A stretch of DNA of 32,000 bases, from contig NC_009483.1 in assembly GCF_000016745.1 (NCBI RefSeq), positions 1,560,001-1,592,000 of the forward strand, written 5' to 3'. Made by a program: the position numbers and the translations under genes. This document shows positions 11,688 through 32,000 of the stretch, piece after piece. The notes below the pieces were generated by a model, which saw only the letters and a program-made list of their open reading frames with translations, did no database searches and was not told the DNA's origin. Source of the DNA: Geotalea uraniireducens Rf4. GTDB lineage: Bacteria; Desulfobacterota; Desulfuromonadia; Geobacterales; Geobacteraceae. Every line of letters begins with the position of its first letter. The stretch's first letter is position 1.

Positions 11688-11762
11688 CGAGGTCCGAGGT
11701 CCGAGGTCCGAGGATCGAGGATCGAGGATCGAGGATCGAGGATCGAGGATCGAGGATCGAGG
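11688..11762 (+). repeat. Heptanucleotide tandem array: (CGAGGTC)x3 (CGAGGAT)x7 CGAGG
   Basis: Counted directly. It starts 10 nt after the metK stop codon and ends 16 nt before the terminator stem. Confidence 0.95.
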
Positions 11763-11816: not shown

Positions 11817-13741
11817 GTGCGCCAGGCATGGCGCGTGGCGCGTAAGCGCCATCCAATTGGGTATGGTGCCTGATTGGTGACTTGGAGGTGAAAGTCCTCT
11901 TCGGACCCTGATGGTGGGAACCGATAGCTGAACAGCAAGGGTGTCCGGGGCGACCCGGAATCTGAAGGAAGCTGTAGGCAAAGTCCTGGCCCGACGAACA
12001 GGAATCGCATATGAGGCAGCCACATCTGGGCGAGAAGGCAAACAGATTCAAAGCCCGATAACCATCCAGAAAGATGTGGAAGTAGATGCGGCGGGTATAT
12101 GGGATGAAGGTCACGCGCATTACCCTGGGAGGTCTGTCAACCTGCCTTGTGCTACCGGCATCGAGAGGTGCCGGGATGGGTTGGCAGAAGTCAGCAGAGG
12201 CCATACGAGTCGGAATAACCGACCGACAAAGGGCCGAACTTGAAGTAAGCGGACAGGAGCCTTGAGTTTCGATGACGACAGGAGCAGCAGAAGGCCGGGT
12301 TGGGATACCCGGCGCCAGCCCGGAGGGTAGCGGTTGGAAACCGCGAGAGAAAGGGAGAGGTGCGGCAAACGTCACGGGAAGGAAAGCAGCTCACTGGCCG
12401 GAAGCGGCAACGGGACTGATGGAGAAGATCGTCAGTCGCGGCAACATGATGGCGGCATACTCACGGGTAATGCGCAACAAGGGAGCGCCCGGCGTCGATA
12501 ACATGCCGGTAACGGCCCTGAAGGGCTACCTACAGGAGGAATGGCCGCGCATCAGAGAAGAACTGCTGACGGGAACGTATCACCCGCAACCGGTGCGGAA
12601 AGTAGAAATTCCCAAACCGGGAGGCGGCACACGGATGCTGGGAATTCCCACCGTCCTTGACCGACTCATTCAGCAGGCGGTGCATCAAGTTTTGAGCCCG
12701 CTGTTCGACCCTGGTTTCTCCATAAGTTCCCACGGGTTTCGCCCTGGACGGAGCGCCCATCAAGCGATCAAGGCAGCTCGGAAGTATGTAGAGAGCGGCC
12801 TTAGGTGGGTGGTTGACATTGACCTTGAGAAATTTTTCGACCGAGTCCACCACGACACCCTTATGTCGCTGGTGAAACGCAAGGTTGGAGACCGTCTGGT
12901 GCTGTCCCTTATCGACAGCTACCTTAAGGCAGGGATACTTGAAGGAGGAGTGACGTCACCCCGGTTGGAAGGCACGCCGCAAGGCGGGCCTCTCTCGCCG
13001 CTGCTGTCCAACATCCTCCTCGACGAACTGGACAAGAAACTGGAAAGAAGGGGCCATAAGTTCTGCCGCTATGCCGACGACGCAAATATCTATGTTGCAA
13101 CGAGGAGAAGCGGCGAGCGTGTCATGGCCTCAATTACCGGCTACCTGTCCGAGCGGCTCAAGCTCACGGTCAACCAGGGCAAAAGCGCGGTTGACCGTCC
13201 GTGGAAAAGGTCGTTTCTGAGTTACAGCATGACCCGGCACCGCAAACCGCGGCTTACCGTGGCCAAGAAAGCGGCTGCCAGGCTCAAGGCCAACCTCAAG
13301 ACGATCTTTAGGCGGGGAAGGGGTCAGAACATCCAAACCACCGTTGAAGAGACAACCCCGAAACTTAGGGGTTGGTTAAACTACTTTCGGTACGCGGAAG
13401 TAAAAGGCATCTTCGAGGAACTGGACGGATGGCTGAGACGTAAACTGCGTCGCATTCTCTGGAAGCAGTGGAAGCGCCCCAAGACGCGAGCAAAGAAACT
13501 GATGCGGCGGGGATTATCGGAGGCAACTGCATGGCGGTCGGCCACAAACGGCCGCGGCCCCTGGTGGAATGCAGGGGCCGCGCATATGAACAAAGCTGTT
13601 CCGAAATTCTACTTCGACAAACTGGGGCTGGTATCACTCATAGACCAGCTTCACCGACTTCAACGTACTTCATGAACCGCCGTGTACGGAACCGTACGCA
13701 CGGTGGTGTGGGAGGACGGCGGGAGCAATCCCGCCTCCTAC
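11817..13741 (+). mobile_element. Group II intron, class C (IIC)-like, about 1.9 kb
   Basis: The 5' end is GTGCG at 11817. An internal RT/maturase ORF is present. Domain V-like helix at about 13678-13707 (CCGCCGTGTACGG-AA-CCGTACGCACGGTGG) has a 2-nt bulge and a CGC triad instead of AGC. A domain VI-like helix is GGAGGACGGCGGGAGCAATCCCGCCTCC, ending ..CTAC at 13741. It is inserted about 10 nt after a terminator hairpin, in the same orientation. The 3' boundary is good to a few nt only. Confidence 0.85.
12419..13675 (+). CDS. ltrA: Group II intron reverse transcriptase/maturase (no endonuclease domain)
   Basis: KGAPGVDNM (RT0/1), PKPGGGTRMLGIPTVLDRLIQQA, GTPQGGPLSPLLSNILL, RYADDANIYV (YADD catalytic box), and maturase X domain RGWLNYFRYA. 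The C-terminus is GPWWNAGAAHMNKAV..LGLVSL with no HNH. The start was set at MEKIVSRGNMM (12419); the upstream part of the track ORF is intron RNA. Confidence 0.9.
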   Translation: MEKIVSRGNMMAAYSRVMRNKGAPGVDNMPVTALKGYLQEEWPRIREELLTGTYHPQPVRKVEIPKPGGGTRMLGIPTVLDRLIQQAVHQVLSPLFDPGFSISSHGFRPGRSAHQAIKAARKYVESGLRWVVDIDLEKFFDRVHHDTLMSLVKRKVGDRLVLSLIDSYLKAGILEGGVTSPRLEGTPQGGPLSPLLSNILLDELDKKLERRGHKFCRYADDANIYVATRRSGERVMASITGYLSERLKLTVNQGKSAVDRPWKRSFLSYSMTRHRKPRLTVAKKAAARLKANLKTIFRRGRGQNIQTTVEETTPKLRGWLNYFRYAEVKGIFEELDGWLRRKLRRILWKQWKRPKTRAKKLMRRGLSEATAWRSATNGRGPWWNAGAAHMNKAVPKFYFDKLGLVSLIDQLHRLQRTS

Positions 13742-13764
13742 CCGATTTCGTCCCCAACTCCCCG

Positions 13765-13820
13765 TTCCTTTAACCTTTGTCCTCGTTCCTCTATTCTTTG
13801 TCCTCGTTCCTTTGTCCTCG
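13765..13820 (-). repeat. Heptad-periodic GGA-rich repeat array (CGAGGACAAAGGAA-type units at 14/21-nt spacing), read on the minus strand
   Basis: The minus strand reads GCGAGGACAAAGGAACGAGGACAAAGAATAGAGGAACGAGGACAAAGGTTAAAGGAACGGGG. Three copies of GGAACGAGGACAAAG are present, and the array overlaps the last codons and stop of the response-regulator gene. Confidence 0.75.
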
Positions 13821-20794: not shown

Positions 20795-20941
20795 GGAAAC
20801 GAGCCTTTTTCGCCCTGGCTGCGTAAGTCTTCGGGGCTGCTTGTGTGGCGTAGCGATGTTTATGGCCTCCGAGGAGATCCTGCGGGAGACGCCGATCTGG
20901 CCGAAATTTCGCGCCCGGAAGGTAGATTGACCAGTACTGTA

Positions 20942-21070
20942 CGGTTAGGTTTTTCCATCCACACTCCCCCCCTCACCCTAGCCCTCTCCTTTAGGCCCGC
21001 AATTTGGGTCCACAAGGGGCGAGGGGACTTTAAAGCTCCCCTCCCTTGATGGGAGGGGTTGGGGGAGGGT
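20942..21070 (+). repeat. About 129-bp dispersed repeat, copy 1 (C-rich 5' arm, G-rich 3' arm)
   Basis: It aligns with 26451-26579. The last 98 nt (TCACCCTAGCCC...GGGGGAGGGT) are identical by eye. Confidence 0.9.
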
Positions 21071-21223: not shown

Positions 21224-21790
21224 ATGGGTGATGCAGAATTGCATGGATATGCGATAGCGACGGAGATGGCGGGGGATGAGGGGGTCCAGCTGCTCTCCGG
21301 CCTGGGCAAGGGAGAGTTGATAAAGATCATCATTGATGACGCGAAAAACTGGCTGGCCCACGACGGGCTCTGGTTCCAGGCAGTGGAGAGCGTCCACGGC
21401 ATGGACGAGGCCATTGCCGCCGACCGGGCCGCCTGGGAGAAGTTCACCGTCATCGAGGCAAAGCGGATCATGGAACGCCTCGGCATGAAGCCCGGCGGCG
21501 GCATCCCTGCCCTGGTGGAATGCCTCAAGCACCGCCTCTATGCGCGGCTGAACCTCCAGGACGTCATGGAACAGAGCGACAGCCGGGTGGTGTTCCGCAT
21601 GGTGGATTGCCGTGTCCAGTCGGCTCGCAGGCGCAAGGGGCTCGCCGACTTCCCGTGCAAGACGGTGGGAATCGTCGAGTACGCGGAGTTCGCCAGGACC
21701 ATCGACCCGCGCATCAGGACCCGGTGTATCGCCTGTCCGCCGGATGCGCATCCGGATCAATACTGGTGCGCCTGGGAATTTACTCTTTGA
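21224..21790 (+). CDS. Hypothetical Cys-rich protein (possibly DUF6125-like; name from memory, unverified)
   Basis: The ORF contains LAHDGLWFQAVE...AAWEKFTVIEAKRI and the C-terminal pattern C..Q....K....FPCK......C..CPPD.....WCAWEF. The start was set at ATG 21224 after GAGGGGGG; the track ORF begins at a TTG. Confidence 0.65.
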   Translation: MGDAELHGYAIATEMAGDEGVQLLSGLGKGELIKIIIDDAKNWLAHDGLWFQAVESVHGMDEAIAADRAAWEKFTVIEAKRIMERLGMKPGGGIPALVECLKHRLYARLNLQDVMEQSDSRVVFRMVDCRVQSARRRKGLADFPCKTVGIVEYAEFARTIDPRIRTRCIACPPDAHPDQYWCAWEFTL

Positions 21791-21975
21791 GGAACGAGGA
21801 AAAAGGAGCGAGGAACGAGGAACGAGGAAAAAGGAACGAGGAGCGAGGAAAAAGGAACGAGGAGCGAGGAAAAAGGAGCGAGGAACGAGGAAAAAGGAGC
21901 GAGGATAATGGCGCGAGGTGAGAGCCTAGAGCCTAGAGGTTTTCCTCGAACCTCGAACCTCGATCCTCGATCCTC
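21791..21975 (+). repeat. Heptad-periodic purine-rich array with a short inverted block
   Basis: Counted directly: 12 forward CGAGG cores spaced 7 or 14 nt apart, then 2x AGAGCCT, then TTTT, then an inverted block (CCTCGAA x2, CCTCGAT x2, CCTC). The array fills the whole intergenic space from the stop codon at 21790 to about 30 nt before the icmF start. Confidence 0.9.
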
Positions 21976-25380: not shown

Positions 25381-26427
25381 ATGACCCGCCCCAAAGAAAC
25401 CTCATACTACCAAACCCTTCCCCTCAGTACCGACCTTGCCCTGCGCCGTCGCTACATGGTGGTGGACGAGCCGATTCCGGGAAACCTCCGCTTCGGCCTT
25501 TTGCTGGAGATCCTGGACCTGGTCGCCGAGAAGACCGCCTTGAATTATGTGAATCGTTTCTACCCGGATGCGCGGGTAGTGACGGCGGCCATCGACAACA
25601 TCTTCGTCCGCCATGCCGCTGACGTGACCAGAGACATCGTCTTCCACGCCCGCATCAATCACGTCGGGCGGTCATCGCTTGAGATCGGCATCCGCGTCGA
25701 ACAGCCGGGCGATCCCACCAACCACATCGCCTCCTGCTACTTCACCATGGTGGCCCGCTCCGGCATGGGGGAGGGGGCGGTGAGCGTGACGCTCCCCCCG
25801 CTGGAATACCTGGACGAAACGGAACAGGCGCGGGCGAAGAAGGCGTTGTCGGGACGGGATGAGTACCGCCAGCAGCAGGCGCTCCTGACGGAGCCCCCGT
25901 CGCGGGAGGAGTACGAGATGCTCGCCGCCCTGCACAAGGCCCAGGAGGAGCCGGGGTTCTCCGGCCTTCTGGCCGGGCGCCTGGTGGCCGATGCCTGGGA
26001 GCGGATGTACCCGGAGCAGGAGAACGTGCCGCAGAAGATCTTCGGCGGCTACCTGATCCGGCGCGCCTACGAGCTTTCCGCCATCTGTTCGGAGCTGGTG
26101 GCGCCGGACCGCTCCATCGTCGCCGCGGTGAACCGGATCAACTTCTTCCACCCGGTCCGGATGGGTGACAAGCTCCACTTCACCTCACGGGTGGTTTACA
26201 CCAGTGGCAGCTTCGTCTGCGTTGAAGCGAGCATCGAGCGGCTCAGCCTCGACCGGACCAGCAAGGCGCTCTCCAATTCGTGCTTGTTCACCTTCGTCAA
26301 CGTGGACCGGGAACTGGTGCACCAGCCGGTGCCTGCCATCTATCCTGCCACCTATGTCGAAGATGCCAGCTACCTGGCGGCCCACCGGAGCTACCAGTCG
26401 ATCGTCCGGCATCATGCGATCATATAG
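25381..26427 (+). CDS. Acyl-CoA thioesterase (tandem hotdog-fold)
   Basis: 348 aa with two hotdog-like halves (..HAADVTRDIVFHARINHVGRSSLEIGIRV.. and ..HPVRMGDKLHFTSRVVYTSGSFVCVEASI..). SD AAAGGAG is upstream, and the gene is co-directional with icmF. Confidence 0.8.
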   Translation: MTRPKETSYYQTLPLSTDLALRRRYMVVDEPIPGNLRFGLLLEILDLVAEKTALNYVNRFYPDARVVTAAIDNIFVRHAADVTRDIVFHARINHVGRSSLEIGIRVEQPGDPTNHIASCYFTMVARSGMGEGAVSVTLPPLEYLDETEQARAKKALSGRDEYRQQQALLTEPPSREEYEMLAALHKAQEEPGFSGLLAGRLVADAWERMYPEQENVPQKIFGGYLIRRAYELSAICSELVAPDRSIVAAVNRINFFHPVRMGDKLHFTSRVVYTSGSFVCVEASIERLSLDRTSKALSNSCLFTFVNVDRELVHQPVPAIYPATYVEDASYLAAHRSYQSIVRHHAII

Positions 26428-26450
26428 GCGCTTGCGGCTTGAGTCCCTTG

Positions 26451-26579
26451 CGGTAAGTTTTTTGTATCCGCACTTCCCCCCTCACCCTAGCCCTCTCCTT
26501 TAGGCCCGCAATTTGGGTCCACAAGGGGCGAGGGGACTTTAAAGCTCCCCTCCCTTGATGGGAGGGGTTGGGGGAGGGT
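26451..26579 (+). repeat. About 129-bp dispersed repeat, copy 2
   Basis: Same orientation as copy 1 at 20942-21070. The differences are confined to the first roughly 30 nt. Confidence 0.9.
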
Positions 26580-26663
26580 CCCGGTTATGCCGGGGATTAA
26601 GGCGAAGAACCTTTGTCGGGACGCTGATGAACGCGGATTAAATGCTGAAAATCTGGAGGAATT

Positions 26664-27200
26664 ATGGATATTTTCCAAGCGATCAACGATAGAAGGAGCA
26701 TCAGGAAATACAAAGATATCCCGGTAGAGTGGGAGAAGATCGGCCAGGTGCTCGACGCGGCCCGGCTCGCCCCTTCCTGGAAGAACATGCAGTGCTGGCG
26801 TTTCCTGGTCCTGACTGCTTCCGATAAGAAAGACGCTATGCTCTCCGCCTTCCCCGACGATAATCCGGGGAAAAAGGCCATTGCCCAGGCGCCGGTGGTG
26901 ATCGTGGTCTGTGCTGACCCGGCCGAATCGGGGATAGAGAACGGCGTCGAGTACTACATCGCCGATACGGCCATCGCCTTCGAGCATATCTGCCTGGCGG
27001 CCCATGGATTGGGGCTCGGCACCTGCTGGATGGGGTGGTACGACGAAGCGGCCATCAAGGGGGAACTTGGCATTCCCGACGGAATCCGGGTGGTGGGGGT
27101 GACGCCGCTCGGCTACCCCGACCAGGAGCCGAAGCAGCGGCCGCGCAAGGAACTCGCTGAAATTGCCTATTACAATGATTGGGGGAAGACCGAATGTTGA
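26664..27200 (+). CDS. Nitroreductase-family protein
   Basis: 178 aa: RRSIRKYKD.PV......VLDAARLAPSWKNMQCWRF. SD GGAGGA is upstream. Confidence 0.88.
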   Translation: MDIFQAINDRRSIRKYKDIPVEWEKIGQVLDAARLAPSWKNMQCWRFLVLTASDKKDAMLSAFPDDNPGKKAIAQAPVVIVVCADPAESGIENGVEYYIADTAIAFEHICLAAHGLGLGTCWMGWYDEAAIKGELGIPDGIRVVGVTPLGYPDQEPKQRPRKELAEIAYYNDWGKTEC

Positions 27201-28363
27201 CTAAAATGGAATCGGAACAGCGGATCATCAGGCTGCAGAAGGAACTGAAGGAGAAGGGGCTCGACGGGGCGCTCTTCATCTATCCCATCGACGTCTATTA
27301 TTTCGCCGGCACCCGCCAGAACTCCACCATCTGGATACCGGCGGACGGCAATCCGCGCCTTTTTGCCCGGAAGAGCTACGCACGCGCCCTGACTGAGAGC
27401 CTCATCGAGGATACCCGACCGTTTCCGGGAAGCAAGGAGTTTCCTGCCCTGTTCGGCGCGGAGGTGCGAAAGATCGGCTTCACTTTCGACGTGGCGCCGG
27501 TGCAGCAGTACAACTACTACTCCAAGCTCCTGCCGGGGCGTGAGTTTGCCGACATCTCCGCCATCAACCGGGATATCCGATCGGTCAAGTCGGAGTGGGA
27601 GCTGGAGCGGATGCGCCACAGCGGTGACCATCTCTGCGAGGTGTTCCGCCAGGTGCCGGAGTTTCTCAAGGCGGGAATGCGGGAAATCGACCTGGCCGCC
27701 GAGTTCGAATACCGGCTGCGAAAGGCGGGGGGCGAGGGATACGTGCGGATGCGCGCCTTCAACCAGGAGCTGTTCCAGGGACTGGCGGTCAGCGGCGCCA
27801 CCTCCGGCAACCCCGGCTTCTTCGACGGTGCGGTAACCGGCCGGGGGCTCTCCACCGCCTCTCCCCACGGCGCCTCCACCGAAGCAATCACCGCCAACAC
27901 TCCCGTTCTCATCGACTACACCGGTGTCTTCAACGGCTACATCGTCGACATGACCCGGATCTTCGCCATCGGCAAGCTTGCGCCGGAGCTGGAGCATGCC
28001 TTTGCCACCTCCCTTGCCATCCAGCAGCACCTGGTGGAAAACCTGAAGCCGGGTGTCATCTGCGAGGAACTGTTCTTCAAGGCCGCCGAAATGGCGGAAC
28101 AGGCGGGGCTGGGGCAGAATTTCATGGGCGCGCCGGGGGAAAACGCCAAATTTGTCGGCCACGGTGTCGGGCTGGAGCTGGACGAGTATCCGGTCCTGGC
28201 CCAAGGCTTCAAGGTGCCGCTCCAGGCGGGGCAGACCATTGCCATTGAGCCCAAGTTCGTCCTCCCCGGCATGGGTGTGGTGGGGATCGAAAATACCTTT
28301 GCAGTGAGCAGCCACGGCGGGGTGAAGATCACCGATCTGGCGGATGAGATCGTTTATCTGTAG
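27194..28363 (+). CDS. M24-family metallopeptidase (Xaa-Pro aminopeptidase/creatinase-like)
   Basis: N-terminal creatinase-like domain, then the pita-bread motifs VLIDYTGVFNGYIVDMTRIF, HGVGLELDEYP and IAIEPK. ATG 27194 overlaps the nitroreductase stop by 7 nt. Confidence 0.88.
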   Translation: MLTKMESEQRIIRLQKELKEKGLDGALFIYPIDVYYFAGTRQNSTIWIPADGNPRLFARKSYARALTESLIEDTRPFPGSKEFPALFGAEVRKIGFTFDVAPVQQYNYYSKLLPGREFADISAINRDIRSVKSEWELERMRHSGDHLCEVFRQVPEFLKAGMREIDLAAEFEYRLRKAGGEGYVRMRAFNQELFQGLAVSGATSGNPGFFDGAVTGRGLSTASPHGASTEAITANTPVLIDYTGVFNGYIVDMTRIFAIGKLAPELEHAFATSLAIQQHLVENLKPGVICEELFFKAAEMAEQAGLGQNFMGAPGENAKFVGHGVGLELDEYPVLAQGFKVPLQAGQTIAIEPKFVLPGMGVVGIENTFAVSSHGGVKITDLADEIVYL

Positions 28364-28399
28364 TGGCGCCGTGAGGAGTGAGGAGAAATGGTCATCAAG

Positions 28400-28426
28400 G
28401 GGCAACCAGCGGGTTGCCCTTTTTTT
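28400..28426 (+). terminator. Rho-independent terminator (after the M24 peptidase gene)
   Basis: GGGCAACC-agcg-GGTTGCCC followed by T7. Confidence 0.85.
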
Positions 28427-28470
28427 GATTCATTCCCATGTTTTAGAAGTATTTAAATATCTAATGTTAA

Positions 28471-28498
28471 TTGACTATGCCAGTGTTTATGGTATGTG
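28471..28498 (+). promoter_or_regulatory. Candidate sigma70 promoter of the small-ORF/AsnB-like operon
   Basis: TTGACT, a 16-nt spacer, then TG-G-TATGTG (extended -10-like). The conserved box ATTAATTTGCAATGATT (28506-28522) lies at the predicted transcription start. Confidence 0.5.
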
Positions 28499-28578
28499 AA
28501 TTGGTATTAATTTGCAATGATTAAGATGCGCGGTCTAGGGTTGATAAGTCAGGAATAATAGCCAAGGAGGAAAAAACG

Positions 28579-28752
28579 ATGGACAACAAAAAGAGCAAAA
28601 GTGCAGCAATCACCGCTGGCACCGGCGAGACTTGGGATACAGGGTCCTGCCGTACATGGAGCAAACCCATAGTCACGCGTATCAACATTAAGAAAACTAT
28701 GTTGTCAACTGGCAGTGTTAATGATGGCGATGGAAGTACCAATGAAGGGTAA
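28579..28752 (+). CDS. Unannotated 57-aa small ORF: candidate RiPP (lasso-like) precursor peptide
   Basis: It is below the 60-aa cutoff of the ORF track. A strong SD, AAGGAGG, lies 8 nt upstream of ATG 28579. Translation: MDNKKSKSAAITAGTGETWDTGSCRTWSKPIVTRINIKKTMLSTGSVNDGDGSTNEG. It sits 87 nt upstream of, and co-directional with, an asparagine-synthetase-like gene. Confidence 0.6.
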   Translation: MDNKKSKSAAITAGTGETWDTGSCRTWSKPIVTRINIKKTMLSTGSVNDGDGSTNEG

Positions 28753-28839
28753 CACACACGTATGTCGGCCACCAGGAGTCTTGCCCGAGAACGCGGGCAG
28801 CAAATACTTAAAAAGACATATTGTGCCCCAGGAGTATAA

Positions 28840-30759
28840 ATGAGCTGTATCTTCGGTTTTTTACGGCGTGATGGTGCTTCAATCGCACCGCTTACCATGG
28901 AGACCATGCGGCGTCACATGGCTGAATGGGGGCCGGACGGCGGTGACGTGTTGCTGGACGGTCCTGCGGCGATGGGACAGATGCGTCTGTTCAGCACGCC
29001 TGAGGCGACGTATGAGAAGATGCCGCTCATTGATGCGGCAGAGGGCTTCATCTTTACCGCGGCCGGACGCGTGGACAACCGGCAAGAGTTGATCGCGGAT
29101 TGCGGATTGCGGATTGCCGAATATGAAAAATGCGGAATCCCGGATGGTGAAGTGATCCTTCAGGCCTATCGCAAATGGGGCGAGGATTGCCCGAAGCGCA
29201 TTTACGGAGACTGGTCTTTCGCCGTATGGCATCCCCGTGAACGCAGGCTTTTTCTCGCCCGCGACCACTATGGCAACACATCGCTTTATTATTATGCAGA
29301 CCGGCATGTGTTTGCCTTTGCTTCTGACCGCAAAGCATTGCTCGCACTGGACCTTGTGCCCAAAGAGATGGACGAACTCTACCTTGCACAGGTGCTGGTT
29401 TCGTGGCCTGCTTATCACGGAGAGCGCACCATCCACACGCCTGTTAAGCGCCTGCCGCCTGCGCATTGCCTGACAGTTTCGCATGAACGCCTCGATGTGC
29501 GCCGGTATTGGCGATTGGAAGAGACTCCCGAACTGCGCCTGCCACGGCGTAATGATTATGTAGAGGCATTTCGCGATCTGTTCGATGAGGCGGTACGCTG
29601 CAGACTGAGGGTTGCAAACGGCGGCAACACACAAGGAAATGGGGCCGGGCAAATTGCCGTAACACTCAGCGGGGGGCTGGATTCCGGGTCGGTTACTGCC
29701 ACGGCGGCGCATTTCCTGCGTAACGAAGGTAGACGCCTGACAGCTTTTACTTCTGTGCCGCTTTCGGATACAAGCGCCTATGTAAAAAAGAACTTTGGCG
29801 ATGAGTTTCCCTTTGCCCGGTCTACCGCGCAATTCGCCGGGAATGTAGATCATCTGCCCATCACCGCGGCAGCAATTACGCCCATACAGGCAATTCGTCG
29901 GATGCTTCGGATTCACGGCGAGCCGGCGCACGCCGCTGGAAATTTTTTCTGGATGCTGGAGCTGGAAGAGACTGCACGTGCCTGTGGCTGCCGTGCCCTG
30001 CTCACCGGTCAGGTGGGTAACGGTGGCATCTCATGGACAGGTGATGTGTTCTCACAGCCGCTCGCATTGCAGTTACGCCATTATGGCTGGAGGAAATGGA
30101 CAAAGGAAAGCGCAAAGCGGATTGCATCCCCTGTCTTGCTGAAGGCATACCGCCGCGCGCGAATGCCGAAGGATTATTCATGGTGCCAATCATCCGCCAT
30201 CCATCCTGATTTTGCTCGCCGCTTGAACCTGCTGGAACAACGATTGAACGACCCTGCCGAGCATCCGCGCAGTCCGCAAGAAAAGCGTTTTCAGATTCTC
30301 CAGCCCGGCTGCTCCTTTGTCGGTGCGCTGCATGCCCAAATGGGGGCAGCTCACGGGCTGGAAATACGCGACCCTACTGCAGATGCACGTGTCCTCGCCT
30401 TCACGCTCTCGGTGCCCGACTACATCTTCATGGACCCGACGACGGGGCTGGATCGTTGGCTCATCCGCGAGGCCATGAAGGGCCGTCTGCCGGACGAGGT
30501 GCGTTTAAATCGCGAGAGGGGTCGTCAGGCGGGCGACCTTGTCCCTCGGCTTCGCGCCTGCGCCGACGAGGTAGAAACCGCCCTGGACGAGTTGGCCGTG
30601 GGGCCTGCGGCCGCCTATCTAAATGTGCCTTATATGCGCGAGGTGTGGGCAATGGTCCGCACCGATGACACTCCGGAAGCTTTTCGCAAGTCGGTAACCA
30701 TTCTCACCAGAGGCATCATGGCCGGATTGTGGGTGAATGGGTTCTACAATGTAACCTGA
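28840..30759 (+). CDS. Asparagine synthetase B-like ATP-dependent amidotransferase (lasso-peptide-cyclase-like)
   Basis: 639 aa. The N-terminal Ntn-like domain starts MSCIFGF, so the Cys is not at position 2. The PP-loop SGGLDS lies at nt 29668-29685 (IAVTLSGGLDSGSV), followed by an AsnB-type C-terminal domain. SD AGGAG is 5 nt upstream. Confidence 0.88.
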   Translation: MSCIFGFLRRDGASIAPLTMETMRRHMAEWGPDGGDVLLDGPAAMGQMRLFSTPEATYEKMPLIDAAEGFIFTAAGRVDNRQELIADCGLRIAEYEKCGIPDGEVILQAYRKWGEDCPKRIYGDWSFAVWHPRERRLFLARDHYGNTSLYYYADRHVFAFASDRKALLALDLVPKEMDELYLAQVLVSWPAYHGERTIHTPVKRLPPAHCLTVSHERLDVRRYWRLEETPELRLPRRNDYVEAFRDLFDEAVRCRLRVANGGNTQGNGAGQIAVTLSGGLDSGSVTATAAHFLRNEGRRLTAFTSVPLSDTSAYVKKNFGDEFPFARSTAQFAGNVDHLPITAAAITPIQAIRRMLRIHGEPAHAAGNFFWMLELEETARACGCRALLTGQVGNGGISWTGDVFSQPLALQLRHYGWRKWTKESAKRIASPVLLKAYRRARMPKDYSWCQSSAIHPDFARRLNLLEQRLNDPAEHPRSPQEKRFQILQPGCSFVGALHAQMGAAHGLEIRDPTADARVLAFTLSVPDYIFMDPTTGLDRWLIREAMKGRLPDEVRLNRERGRQAGDLVPRLRACADEVETALDELAVGPAAAYLNVPYMREVWAMVRTDDTPEAFRKSVTILTRGIMAGLWVNGFYNVT

Positions 30760-30820
30760 AATTGAGATGAGTGAAAACATTACTTGCAGACGGTGGATAG
30801 TGAAGAGGAAAAGTCATCAA

Positions 30821-30847
30821 GGGCAACCAGCGGGTTGCCCTTTTTTT
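30821..30847 (+). terminator. Rho-independent terminator (after the AsnB-like gene)
   Basis: GGGCAACC-agcg-GGTTGCCC followed by T7. Stem and loop are identical to those at 28400-28426. Confidence 0.85.
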
Positions 30848-30892
30848 GAATTCGTTCTCATGTTTAAGAAGCGTTTAAATAGAAAATAATAA

Positions 30893-30920
30893 TTGACAGT
30901 GTCCTGGTTTGTGGTATTTA
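30893..30920 (+). promoter_or_regulatory. Candidate sigma70 promoter of the GNAT/tail-collar operon
   Basis: TTGACA, a 16-nt spacer, then TG-G-TATTTA (extended -10). The conserved box ATTAATTTGCAATAATT lies at 30929-30945. Confidence 0.5.
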
Positions 30921-31079
30921 GATTTAACATTAATTTGCAATAATTGTTAAACTTTATTTTTTGGTAAAGCATACCTGGTATGTCAACCAATCTCAGGCGT
31001 TCTTCAGCGATTCAGAAGCATCTGTCGCTCTCATGTGATTTGGTACGATATGTTGGACATGTCGAACGTCTGGATTCCC

Positions 31080-31583
31080 ATGGAAAACCATAACACCGCC
31101 ACGAAAAGGAGCGAAACTATCCATTTCCGCCCCATTACTGATGAGGATATGGAATTCCTGTACCGTCTGTACGCCTCCACGCGGCTCACGGAGATGGCCG
31201 TTACGGGATGGAACGAAACTCAGATCGAGGCTTTCCTGAGGATGCAGTTCAGGCTTCAGCACATGCAGTATATGCAGAACTATCCCGGTGCATCTTTCAA
31301 TATCGTTTTCATTGACGGCACGCCCGCCGGAAGGCTGTATGTGGACCGCAAAGAGGACAGGATGCTGGTCATCGACATCTCGCTGTTGCCTGACTTCAAG
31401 GGAAAAGGCGCGGGGGGAAGAATTTTGCGGGCACTGGTCGAAGAGGCCGATGCCAAGGGGCTTGTCATGAGTCTGCACGTGGAGAGAAGCAACCCGATTC
31501 TGCAGTTCTATAAAGCGCTCGGTTTTAGGGAACTGGAGTTGAGAGGCATGTACTACTACATGGAGAGAGAACTGTTAAATTGA
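31080..31583 (+). CDS. GNAT-family N-acetyltransferase
   Basis: IHFRPITDEDMEFLYRLY... is followed by the acetyl-CoA-binding motif LLPDFKGKGAGGRILRALVEEA and then FYKALGF. The start is uncertain: the ORF is open from 31035, ATG codons lie at 31059 and 31080, and none has a good SD. Confidence 0.75.
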   Translation: MENHNTATKRSETIHFRPITDEDMEFLYRLYASTRLTEMAVTGWNETQIEAFLRMQFRLQHMQYMQNYPGASFNIVFIDGTPAGRLYVDRKEDRMLVIDISLLPDFKGKGAGGRILRALVEEADAKGLVMSLHVERSNPILQFYKALGFRELELRGMYYYMERELLN

Positions 31584-31591
31584 GGAAAAAG

Positions 31592-31720
31592 ATGGGTGAA
31601 GGTTACCGGCTGTCACACCCAGACATTGGGGATTTCGTTCTTTTCCTCGGACCGGTGGATATCAAAGGGAGAGACGGGATGTATTACGAAGCGGTTTTTA
31701 ACCGTCTGACGTCACGCTAG
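31592..31720 (+). CDS. Unannotated 42-aa ORF, hypothetical
   Basis: MGEGYRLSHPDIGDFVLFLGPVDIKGRDGMYYEAVFNRLTSR. SD GAGGA is 5 nt upstream, and the ATG is 8 nt after the GNAT stop. It lies between the GNAT and tail-collar genes and is below the ORF-track cutoff. Confidence 0.4.
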   Translation: MGEGYRLSHPDIGDFVLFLGPVDIKGRDGMYYEAVFNRLTSR

Positions 31721-31835
31721 AGAAAGGAGGTCAGGGGGGGCACGTGGGAAATGAGTACCTATGTGCGTACTCCATGGTTTGCTTCACCTTGGTCGGCAGC
31801 GCATAACAATCCAGATCAAAAGGAGGAACAAAAGC

Positions 31836-32000
31836 ATGAGCGATCCGTATCTTGGCGAGATCAGGATGTTCGGCGGAGACTATGCGCCGGAGAATTGGCA
31901 TTTTTGTGACGGCACTCTGCTGCCGATCAGTGGCTACGATGCGCTCTATTCACTCATCGGCACAGCCTACGGCGGTGACGGGATCAACAACTTCGCCCTG
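31836..32000 (+). CDS. Phage tail-collar domain protein (microcystin-dependent-protein/MdpB-like), 5' partial
   Basis: MSDPYLGEIRMFGGDYAPENWHFCDGTLLPISGYDALYSLIGTAYGGDGINNFAL is the canonical N-terminus of tail-collar (PF07484-type) proteins. SD AAAGGAGGA is upstream, and the ORF runs off the window end. Confidence 0.8.
   Translation, partial: MSDPYLGEIRMFGGDYAPENWHFCDGTLLPISGYDALYSLIGTAYGGDGINNFAL

Follow-up and report, generated by a model that had tools for sequence, protein, structure and literature searches.

Two similar copies of one intergenic region bracket a small precursor-peptide gene and an asparagine-synthetase-like gene in Geotalea uraniireducens Rf4, and the question is what these copies are and how the arrangement arose. 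We analysed a stretch of 32,000 nucleotides of this genome (the window). Positions below are window coordinates, from which 26549 is subtracted to obtain the coordinates of the locus itself (L001), and the features of the locus described here all lie on the plus strand.

Two copies of a predicted terminator and promoter region

The first copy, module A (28371..28523), starts 8 nt past the stop codon of an M24 peptidase gene (27194..28363), whereas the second, module B (30793..30947), lies between the genes for the C1 cyclase and a GNAT acetyltransferase. Global alignment of 28371-28523 with 30793-30947 gave a collinear match with 121 of 156 columns identical (78%) and three single-base indels. 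Local alignment of the 800-nt surroundings recovered 28377-28522 against 30799-30945 with a score of 65.5 (shuffles, 10.1 ± 1.1; maximum 14.5), and nhmmer matched module A to module B with E=3e-18. Whole-length similarity in the same orientation, as claimed in the preliminary description, was therefore borne out. The similarity is not confined to the terminator hairpin, since the part after the terminator, taken alone, is 73% identical and scores 39 versus −13 ± 5 for shuffles. It also ends abruptly: no similarity was detected in the 50 nt to the left (3′ end of the M24 gene versus 3′ flank of C1; P=0.18) or in the 55 nt to the right, where two 5′ UTRs are compared (P=0.69), and the shared sequence stops 2-3 nt past the second of two candidate −10 elements (P2, below). 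All the elements listed previously, namely a GGA-rich start, a hairpin with T7, TTGACw, a 16-nt spacer, a TG-extended −10 and a conserved box, were found in both copies. The GGA-rich start of module A (28371..28385) is a two-unit heptamer repeat, GTGAGGA x2.1, according to TRF and the alignment, which also shows that the repeat has decayed in module B (30793-30807). Their sequence marks the two stretches as paralogues derived from one intergenic module, in which a predicted Rho-independent terminator is followed by an AT-rich, putative sigma-70-type promoter region.

A unique 33-nt spacer (30760..30792) separates the C1 stop codon from module B; it has no significant match to the 3′ end of the M24 gene. 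We considered this spacer as a remnant of the start of the kinase gene found behind related cyclases and rejected the idea (P 0.1-0.5 against L005, L008, C2, L011 and L015; P=0.04 against L014, which is lost after correction for six tests). A coding function of the module was likewise discarded, the small ORFs across it being disrupted by 1-nt indels between the copies.

Both hairpins have the structure of intrinsic terminators, with GC-rich stems of 8-11 bp, a 4-nt loop and an adjoining T7. Terminator A (28397..28426; −20.3 kcal/mol, z −4.7) consists of the stem strands GGGCAACC and GGTTGCCC around the loop AGCG, and terminator B (30819..30847; −18.1 kcal/mol, z −4.2) has the same stem and loop; none of 200 shuffles folded as stably as either. 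The identical hairpin sequence with its T7 occupies 28400-28426 and 30821-30847. The longest perfect run between the copies is the 28-nt hairpin stretch, which is longer than expected by chance (P about 0.012). Hairpin A is 34 nt past the M24 stop (28363) and hairpin B 59 nt past the C1 stop (30759), each on the same strand as the gene before it. Terminator A would end the nitroreductase-M24 transcript, and terminator B would end that of pep1-C1.

The hairpin folds on the minus strand too (−15.7 and −17.8 kcal/mol), and in our scan copy B came up as a weak terminator on that strand, as might be seen if the module encoded a minus-strand small RNA ending at the reversed hairpin. We regard this as highly improbable: copy A has no U-tract after the minus-strand hairpin, there is no promoter-like site on the minus strand of either module, the 5′ UTR folds no better than shuffles, and a search of Rfam gave nothing at the gathering threshold (in a permissive search MicX reached 22.5 bits versus 75).

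The module might also belong to a dispersed intergenic repeat family, either REP-/MITE-like or a widely reused mobile promoter, of which two copies lie near each other by chance. The window does contain other repeats, including a 138-nt G/C-rich palindromic repeat (93% identity) and heptamer arrays reminiscent of the two heptamer units with which the module opens. However, only two copies of the module are present in the 32 kb and about 7 kb downstream (~39 kb of genome), and neither is flanked by terminal inverted repeats or target duplications, the sole inverted repeat being the terminator stem. The 20-nt hairpin had three unrelated single matches in 185,579 species genomes, a search whose returns did not include the source genome; a gapped pattern from the hairpin to TTTGCAAT gave 33 chance matches in metagenomes, none of them module-like; and BLAST revealed no plasmid or phage match. 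A dispersed repeat is therefore an improbable explanation.

Candidate promoters and the conserved box

Two candidate promoters can be read in each module. P1 comprises TTGACT, 16 nt and TGgTATGTG in module A (28471..28498), and TTGACA, 16 nt and TGgTATTTA in module B (30893..30920). Its −35 is strong, with five and six of six consensus positions, respectively, and is accompanied by the extended TG, but its −10 hexamers (TATGTG and TATTTA) lack the near-invariant final T (T−7), and a consensus promoter scan did not report P1 of module A. P2 (TGcAATGAT in module A, TGcAATAAT in module B) keeps A−11 and T−7 in both copies and has a weak −35; the scan passed P2 of module B only. A crude scan of the plus strand from module B to the contig end picked up no further consensus promoters or strong terminators. 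We also considered a sigma-54 promoter (GG-N10-GC, TGGCAC-N5-TTGCW; here TGGTAT...TTGCA) and rejected it, as the two elements are 9 nt apart in copy A (GG-N9-GC) and the GG is missing from copy B.

P2 lies within the box conserved between the copies, ATTAATTTGCAATGATT in module A (28506..28522; P2 at 28513-28521, with a TTGCAA core) and ATTAATTTGCAATAATT in module B (30929..30945; P2 at 30936-30944, with TTTAGA 16 nt upstream). The preliminary description took this box to be operator-like, that is, ATTAATTTGCAATRATT would be bound at the transcription start by a dedicated regulator rather than form a part of the core promoter. Its pattern, ATTAATTTGCAAT(G/A)ATT, has two matches in the 32-kb window at up to three mismatches (28506 and 30929; 0.07 expected), and no identical stretch outside the hairpin is longer than the box. 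Moreover, each of the four independent relatives (L010/L012, L013, L014) has one TTGCAA core ahead of GNAT, and none of four precursor-upstream regions of GNAT-less clusters has any (~1e-3 once the post hoc selection of the hexamer is allowed for). This recurrence makes some function of the box plausible. The identity of the two boxes, in contrast, carries little weight, as a 13-nt perfect run is at chance level for copies that are 78% identical (P about 0.3). The box has weak palindromic symmetry, which the sole difference between the copies reduces further; as TGn plus AATRAT it is a good extended −10, better than that of P1; and the island described below holds no regulator gene. An operator for a dedicated regulator thus seems to us rather unlikely.

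A second precursor-cyclase pair at the front of a lasso island

Between the modules lie pep1 (28579..28752), encoding a 57-aa lasso precursor with the leader motif W-KP-V-RI-IK-TM and the predicted core LSTGSVNDGDGSTNEG, and C1 (28840..30759), encoding a 639-aa asparagine-synthetase-like lasso cyclase. C1 is 64% identical to a further cyclase, C2, encoded downstream. The best model for C1 is the lasso cyclase NF033535 (351 bits, under the cut-off of 525), and the albusnodin/ikarugamycin cyclase model gave 74 bits (cut-off 300).

The first gene behind module B encodes the GNAT acetyltransferase (31059..31583; the start is that of the 174-aa NCBI product, another gene call being 31080). It is followed by a DUF6916 remnant (31592..31720), which retains only the last ~38 residues of a protein that relatives encode in full (~95 aa), and by the first of three tail-collar-domain genes (31836..32000, cut by the window end), with the main lasso genes beyond. 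On the downstream contig the order continues with the other two tail-collar genes, pep2, C2, two HPr-kinase-like genes, a sulfotransferase gene, B1 and B2. B1 (PqqD/RRE) and B2 (a leader protease, Transglut_core3) are the cluster's only copies and stand at its downstream end. The locus has the hallmarks of a lasso cluster, with Asp8 in the predicted cores of both pep1 and pep2, AsnB-like cyclases, and PqqD and Transglut_core3 proteins downstream, so lasso peptides are its predicted products. The GNAT, DUF6916 and tail-collar genes are the front of this main cluster, which runs past the window end. This strengthens the earlier proposal of a functional link between the two operons, since the GNAT/tail-collar genes proved to be the 5′ part of a cluster with the sole B1/B2 at its end. 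A literature search combining lasso peptides and tail collar found nothing.

The cassette, then, adds a second precursor and a second cyclase, and has no B1 or B2 genes of its own. Since pep1 also has the leader motif in common with pep2, pep1-C1 would depend on B1 and B2 of the downstream operon. Promoter A would drive pep1-C1, and promoter B the long operon from GNAT to B2; a separate internal promoter may be present ahead of pep2, where there is a 142-nt gap.

Comparison with relatives shows how this region was assembled. In a close relative (L050) the M24 gene, a core gene of Geobacteraceae, is followed after 45 nt by a gene for an EamA-type membrane protein (M24 and EamA 95% and 97% identical, respectively, to those of G. 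uraniireducens), with neither module nor GNAT. In G. uraniireducens ~10.7 kb separates the same two genes, with module A first and module B 2.4 kb further in. The ancestral order of M24, one module and GNAT envisaged at the outset is thus contradicted. The closest relatives differ from part to part of the island: those of the tail-collar, C2, second kinase-like and sulfotransferase genes are in L014, that of GNAT in L010-L012 and that of C1 in L005, and DUF6916 is truncated at the joint between GNAT and tail-collar genes. As the relative passes directly from M24 to EamA, the entire 10.7 kb with its two modules is, judged from these comparisons, a mosaic, horizontally acquired insertion. No direct or inverted terminal repeats were found at its ends (P=0.73 and 0.95).

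In five related clusters (L010, L011, L012, L014 and, in part, L015) a single precursor gene and a single cyclase gene come directly after GNAT, DUF6916 and the three tail-collar genes; the five have one upstream region and no cassette upstream of GNAT. With an nhmmer profile no module was detected in 13 loci of relatives, the regions ahead of GNAT included, nor in the 33 sequences matched in metagenomes. A weak local match of module B to L012 in the AT-rich/TTGAC part (P=0.005 before correction for four tests) is a lead only. The idea that the first 30 nt of the module are a conserved island terminus, matching the start of the AFOR-GNAT spacer in L010/L012, was rejected (P about 0.4).

Origin of the module pair

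Tandem duplication or insertion of a promoter-to-terminator cassette had been proposed for the origin of the bracketing copies. Judged from the five related clusters that lack it, the cassette is a derived addition. Simple tandem duplication of promoter plus genes, on the other hand, does not fit: the two cyclases fall into different clades (the nearest to C1 is P0002, 78%, and to C2 P0053, 76%), with synonymous sites that are saturated and fourfold sites only 41% identical, as against 72-78% identity of the modules. By Jukes-Cantor distance the modules are 0.27-0.35 apart, compared with a neutral distance of 0.13-0.15 from host to L050; the module copies are therefore much less diverged than C1 and C2, and more so than neutral sites between host and relative. 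The duplication of the module would date from the joining of pep1-C1 to the island rather than from the divergence of C1 and C2, and would predate the split of the G. uraniireducens strain from its island-free relative.

We consider it probable that the promoter region was reused: the module would have been duplicated when pep1-C1 was grafted onto the horizontally acquired lasso island, placing both units under the same transcriptional input, with pep1-C1 served by B1 and B2 of the operon. Two near-identical promoter regions would give pep1-C1 and the main operon equal transcriptional input. Bearing a copy of the cluster's own terminator and promoter region, the pair would be insulated from the upstream host gene and co-expressed with the B1 and B2 that it needs.

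When mapped against the empty site in L050, the island and the repeat prove to have left edges no more than 7 nt apart, a coincidence that plain duplication does not predict.

The module might instead be a recombination joint and not just regulatory, with module-headed units stacked at one site, or with the 150-bp direct repeats allowing pep1-C1 to loop out or amplify. The coincidence of edges points this way, as do the mosaic of at least three sources and the 28-nt perfect stretch, which could support homologous recombination. However, there is no integrase, transposase or recombinase among the ten large ORFs at 767-20794, the ORFs at 25381-31720 or the downstream contig; the right island end has no third copy; and a divergence of 22-28% is too high for efficient homologous exchange. 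Nor did searching for the exact M24 and C1 proteins reveal a contig without the cassette: the sole exact-M24 contig carries it, and both public contigs bearing C1 have GNAT directly downstream. We thus give a recombination joint little chance. A broader version, for which we see a slimmer chance still, makes the module a portable joint of lasso islands in general, where precursor-cyclase units, each starting with a module, are stacked at the island 5′ end by recombination at or next to it. If true, this would account for the coincidence of the left edges and for the three-source mosaic, and the direct repeats could let an extra unit loop out or amplify.

Promoter-region reuse, our preferred reading, would make the locus an example of an orphan precursor-cyclase pair wired into an existing RiPP cluster. 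For lasso mining it would mean that the small peptide/AsnB pair and the cluster 5 kb downstream are best interpreted jointly, with two products to be expected from this one island.

Comparison with known systems

Promoter duplication and reuse are already known, and the G. uraniireducens lasso cluster is already in a genome-mining list as Gura_1351 (PMC4289311). In the class of putative mobile promoters (Matus-Garcia, Nijveen and van Passel 2012; commentary PMC3575422), non-homologous genes of the same genome share, in outline, homologous non-coding sequence upstream, the requirement being 80% identity or more across 50 nt or more in the interval from −150 to −50 relative to the start codon. 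Like them, the module precedes non-homologous genes (precursor versus GNAT) without an insertion sequence, and the role proposed is the rewiring or sharing of regulation. Unlike them, the copies are only 72-78% identical (73% after the terminator), and, the GNAT 5′ UTR being long, this interval upstream of the GNAT start (31059) takes in only about 39 nt of module B and leaves out most of what the copies share. The module also carries an upstream terminator, and its copies are adjacent in one biosynthetic island rather than scattered.

Integron arrays and tandem island accretion likewise place gene units at a fixed chromosomal point, separated by a hairpin-bearing repeat. In contrast to integron arrays, neither the window ORFs tested nor the downstream genes include an integrase, and the far end lacks a repeat; a simple GC stem followed by a run of T makes up the hairpin, which does not resemble attC, and each unit has its own candidate promoter.

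Albusnodin-type lasso pathways include an acetyltransferase, and the GNAT gene here is in conserved linkage with lasso genes, which had invited an analogy. The analogy fails on sequence: no predicted core, here or in relatives, contains a lysine, and with the N-terminal amine taken up in ring formation, albusnodin-like lysine acetylation would have no substrate.

The locus also resembles paeninodin-type clusters, with which it shares the precursor Thr at −2, the leader motif P-x-x-x-x-I-x-I-x-x-T, the Asp8 core, an AsnB-like cyclase, split B1 (PqqD) and B2 (transglutaminase-core), and kinase-like and sulfotransferase genes. It differs from them in combining two precursor-cyclase pairs of different clades with one B1/B2 set, in having the second pair on its own predicted terminator-promoter unit, and in carrying GNAT, DUF6916 and three tail-collar genes as a conserved cluster front.

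A duplicated terminator-promoter module

The two stretches that bracket the cassette, which consists of the 57-aa lasso precursor pep1 (28579-28752) and the AsnB-like cyclase C1 (28840-30759), are alike over their whole length, as claimed in the preliminary description. Global alignment of copy A (28371-28523) with copy B (30793-30947) gave 121 identical columns out of 156 (78%) and required three indels of one base each, and the best local match (28377-28522 against 30799-30945) scored 65.5, compared with 10.1±1.1 for shuffles of the 800-nt surroundings. The likeness is not confined to the hairpin, since the part downstream of it was, by itself, 73% identical and scored 39, versus -13±5 for shuffles. 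Each element previously listed was found in its place on reading the sequence. Similarity is lost abruptly at both the left and the right edges. Repeat and box-pattern searches of the 32 kb revealed only these two copies; a dispersed family of copies, or a regulon sharing the conserved box, is possible elsewhere in the G. uraniireducens genome.

The window also holds other repeats. An intergenic repeat of 138 nt (20933-21070 and 26442-26579; 93% identity, with an identical core of about 110 nt) is G/C-rich, internally palindromic and of REP/MITE-type look, and is unrelated to the module. Heptamer tandem arrays, among them CGAGGAT x7.7, GAGGAAC x16.7 and one inverted array, lie at 11709-11762, 13759-13813, 21789-21905 and 21944-21975. 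Such arrays, with the inverted one, flank a group II intron (11944-13746 by Rfam matches; reverse transcriptase/maturase ORF 12272-13675) just past the SAM synthetase gene, and another is found ahead of an icmF-like gene. The module, too, opens with a comparable repeat, its GGA-rich start consisting of two heptamer units.

The first half of the module is a canonical intrinsic terminator, located 34 (A) and 59 (B) nt past same-strand stop codons. The hairpins are identical, with a U7 tail and folding energies of -20.3 and -18.1 kcal/mol, respectively, and their 28-nt run is the only identical run between the copies that is longer than expected (P about 0.012). The second half is AT-rich and contains two promoter candidates. 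The first, P1, is the one proposed in the preliminary description; it combines an excellent -35 element (TTGACT in A, TTGACA in B) with an extended TG and a spacer of 16 nt, and its -10 hexamers miss the last T (TATGTG and TATTTA). The second, P2, is a candidate extended -10 element inside the conserved box (TGcAATGAT in A, TGcAATAAT in B), in which A-11 and T-7 are kept in both copies; in copy B, TTTAGA lies 16 nt upstream of it. Similarity between the copies ends 2-3 nt past the P2 -10 element, as would be expected of a terminator-to-core-promoter unit. Sigma-54 dependence of the module and membership of a known RNA family (Rfam) were both rejected.

The box itself (28506-28522 and 30929-30945), represented by the strings ATTAATTTGCAATRATT or TTGCAAT, has a 13-nt perfect run that is expected at the copies' level of identity (P about 0.3), and is weakly palindromic at best. 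The TTGCAA core of the box is present a single time upstream of GNAT in each independent relative (L010/L012, L013 and L014), and in none of four precursor-upstream regions of clusters lacking GNAT, a distribution whose probability is roughly 1e-3 once the post hoc hexamer choice is taken into account. The box may plausibly have a function, be it that of a -10 element or of a binding site; this is a lead rather than a result.

Gene context and proposed working

The locus continues beyond the window on the public contig L001 (13.2 kb; its coordinates are window positions minus 26549). GNAT, a 42-aa DUF6916 fragment and three tail-collar genes are followed by a second, 56-aa peptide (pep2), the AsnB-like cyclase C2, two ScmC/HPr-kinase-like genes, a sulfotransferase, PqqD (B1), a transglutaminase-core protease (B2) and EamA. 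The genes earlier described as a GNAT/42-aa ORF/tail-collar operon are therefore the front part of a full lasso cluster, which is already in a genome-mining list as Gura_1351 (PMC4289311). The best lasso model for C1 is NF033535, at 351 bits, under its 525-bit cut-off. In pep1, pep2 and six relatives alike, the leader carries the motif W-KP-V-RI-IK-TM and core position 8 is an Asp. Genes for B1 and B2 are lacking from the cassette.

Terminator A would likely end the transcript of the M24 peptidase gene (27194-28363) on the chromosomal flank, and promoter A would likely drive pep1-C1. Terminator B would likely end the pep1-C1 transcript, and promoter B drive the long downstream operon; a crude scan of the + strand from module B to the contig end found no further consensus promoter or strong terminator. 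Since pep1-C1 would have to borrow B1 and B2 from that operon, the two similar promoters would provide matched expression.

In at least five further contigs, which come from different organisms, GNAT, DUF6916 and the three tail-collar genes (window 31059-32000 and L001 4531-6942, compared with L010-L015) immediately precede a lasso precursor and a cyclase; the linkage of GNAT to this lasso family is real and conserved. Another GNAT match, P0123 (86% identity), is carried by a 1.9-kb contig, a candidate for a further Geotalea genome with the island. Our literature search found no mention of tail-collar genes linked with lasso peptide clusters.

Two side observations concern C1 and its nearest clusters. 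Precursor-like ORFs of those clusters (L005 9074-9214 and 9450-9584; also L007) carry the full leader motif and only 6-7 residues past the TL cleavage site (AGIGSPP, EMEEST). A stretch of that length is too short to fold as a lasso, and AGIGSPP lacks acidic residues entirely; these ORFs may be decoys, pseudogenes or encode a different product. Within the C1 coding region, a tandem heptamer (GATTGCG x3.9, 29091-29117; protein ...ADCGLRIAEY...) is a potential slippage site, probably harmless because the peptide is conserved in the homologue P0028.

Origin of the cassette and the island

Related contigs (L010, L011, L012, L014 and, in part, L015) have one upstream region, GNAT, DUF6916, three tail-collar genes, one precursor and one cyclase. 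A precursor-cyclase pair upstream of GNAT was found in none of the five, and the cassette is a derived addition. The proposal that it was an insertion stands to that extent. The ancestral site proposed with it, M24 followed by one module and GNAT, does not: the close relative L050 has M24 (95% identical), 45 nt and EamA (97% identical), whereas in G. uraniireducens these two core genes are about 10.7 kb apart, with the two modules, the cassette and the entire lasso cluster between them. In G. daltonii yet another gene follows M24.

The lasso supercluster island, absent from L050, begins at window position 28371 and runs out of the window to about 12535 on L001. Its left edge lies within 7 nt of that of module A, a coincidence that is the only hint of anything past plain promoter duplication. 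No terminal direct or inverted repeats were found at the island ends, and no integrase or transposase among ten large ORFs at 767-20794, the ORFs at 25381-31720 or the downstream genes. EamA lies 43 nt past B2, and transcription from the island may extend into it; beyond EamA, too, G. uraniireducens and L050 differ in sequence.

C1 and C2 share 64% protein identity, with 41% identity at 4-fold degenerate sites, which are essentially saturated. In a neighbour-joining tree they fall into different subclades, C1 with P0002-P0005 (77-78%), whose clusters lack both GNAT and tail-collar genes, and C2 with P0053 (76%), from L014. Given the separate subclades and the saturation, the cassette is not a recent copy of pep2-C2. 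The module copies are separated by a Jukes-Cantor distance of 0.27, or 0.35 with the hairpin excluded, far below the C1-C2 divergence and about twice the neutral G. uraniireducens-L050 distance (0.13-0.15; 4-fold sites of M24 and EamA). The simplest reading of these distances is that the module-cassette-module-operon composite was assembled before the island reached this site; alternatively, the two modules derived from two related sources. One weak match between module B and the L012 spacer hints that this copy represents the ancestral promoter region of GNAT.

The island is a mosaic. L014 provides the best match for C2, the tail-collar and sulfotransferase genes and the second kinase-like gene (76-84%), L010-L012 for GNAT (74-76%; L014 67%) and L005 for C1 (77%). 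DUF6916 (31592-31720), 92-102 aa in relatives, is reduced to its C-terminal ~38 residues, and the truncation falls exactly at the GNAT/tail-collar joint, where the best relative switches from L010-L012 to L014, suggesting a recombination scar.

Comparison with known systems

The suggested parallel with the acetyltransferase of the albusnodin pathway fails at the substrate. Albusnodin-like lysine acetylation would have nothing to act on, because the predicted cores are lysine-free and the N-terminal amine is spent in the ring. An integron-like array was rejected, and BLAST found no plasmid or phage counterpart of the module. Conceptually, the nearest parallel is promoter reuse by so-called 'putative mobile promoters', in which homologous upstream regions precede non-homologous genes without an insertion sequence (PMC3575422). 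The idea is the same, although the module pair misses the cut-off of that study, being less than 80% identical outside the hairpin and having only about 39 nt between -150 and -50 relative to GNAT. The feature is a further example of a duplicated, reused regulatory region, within a lasso cluster that had already been listed.
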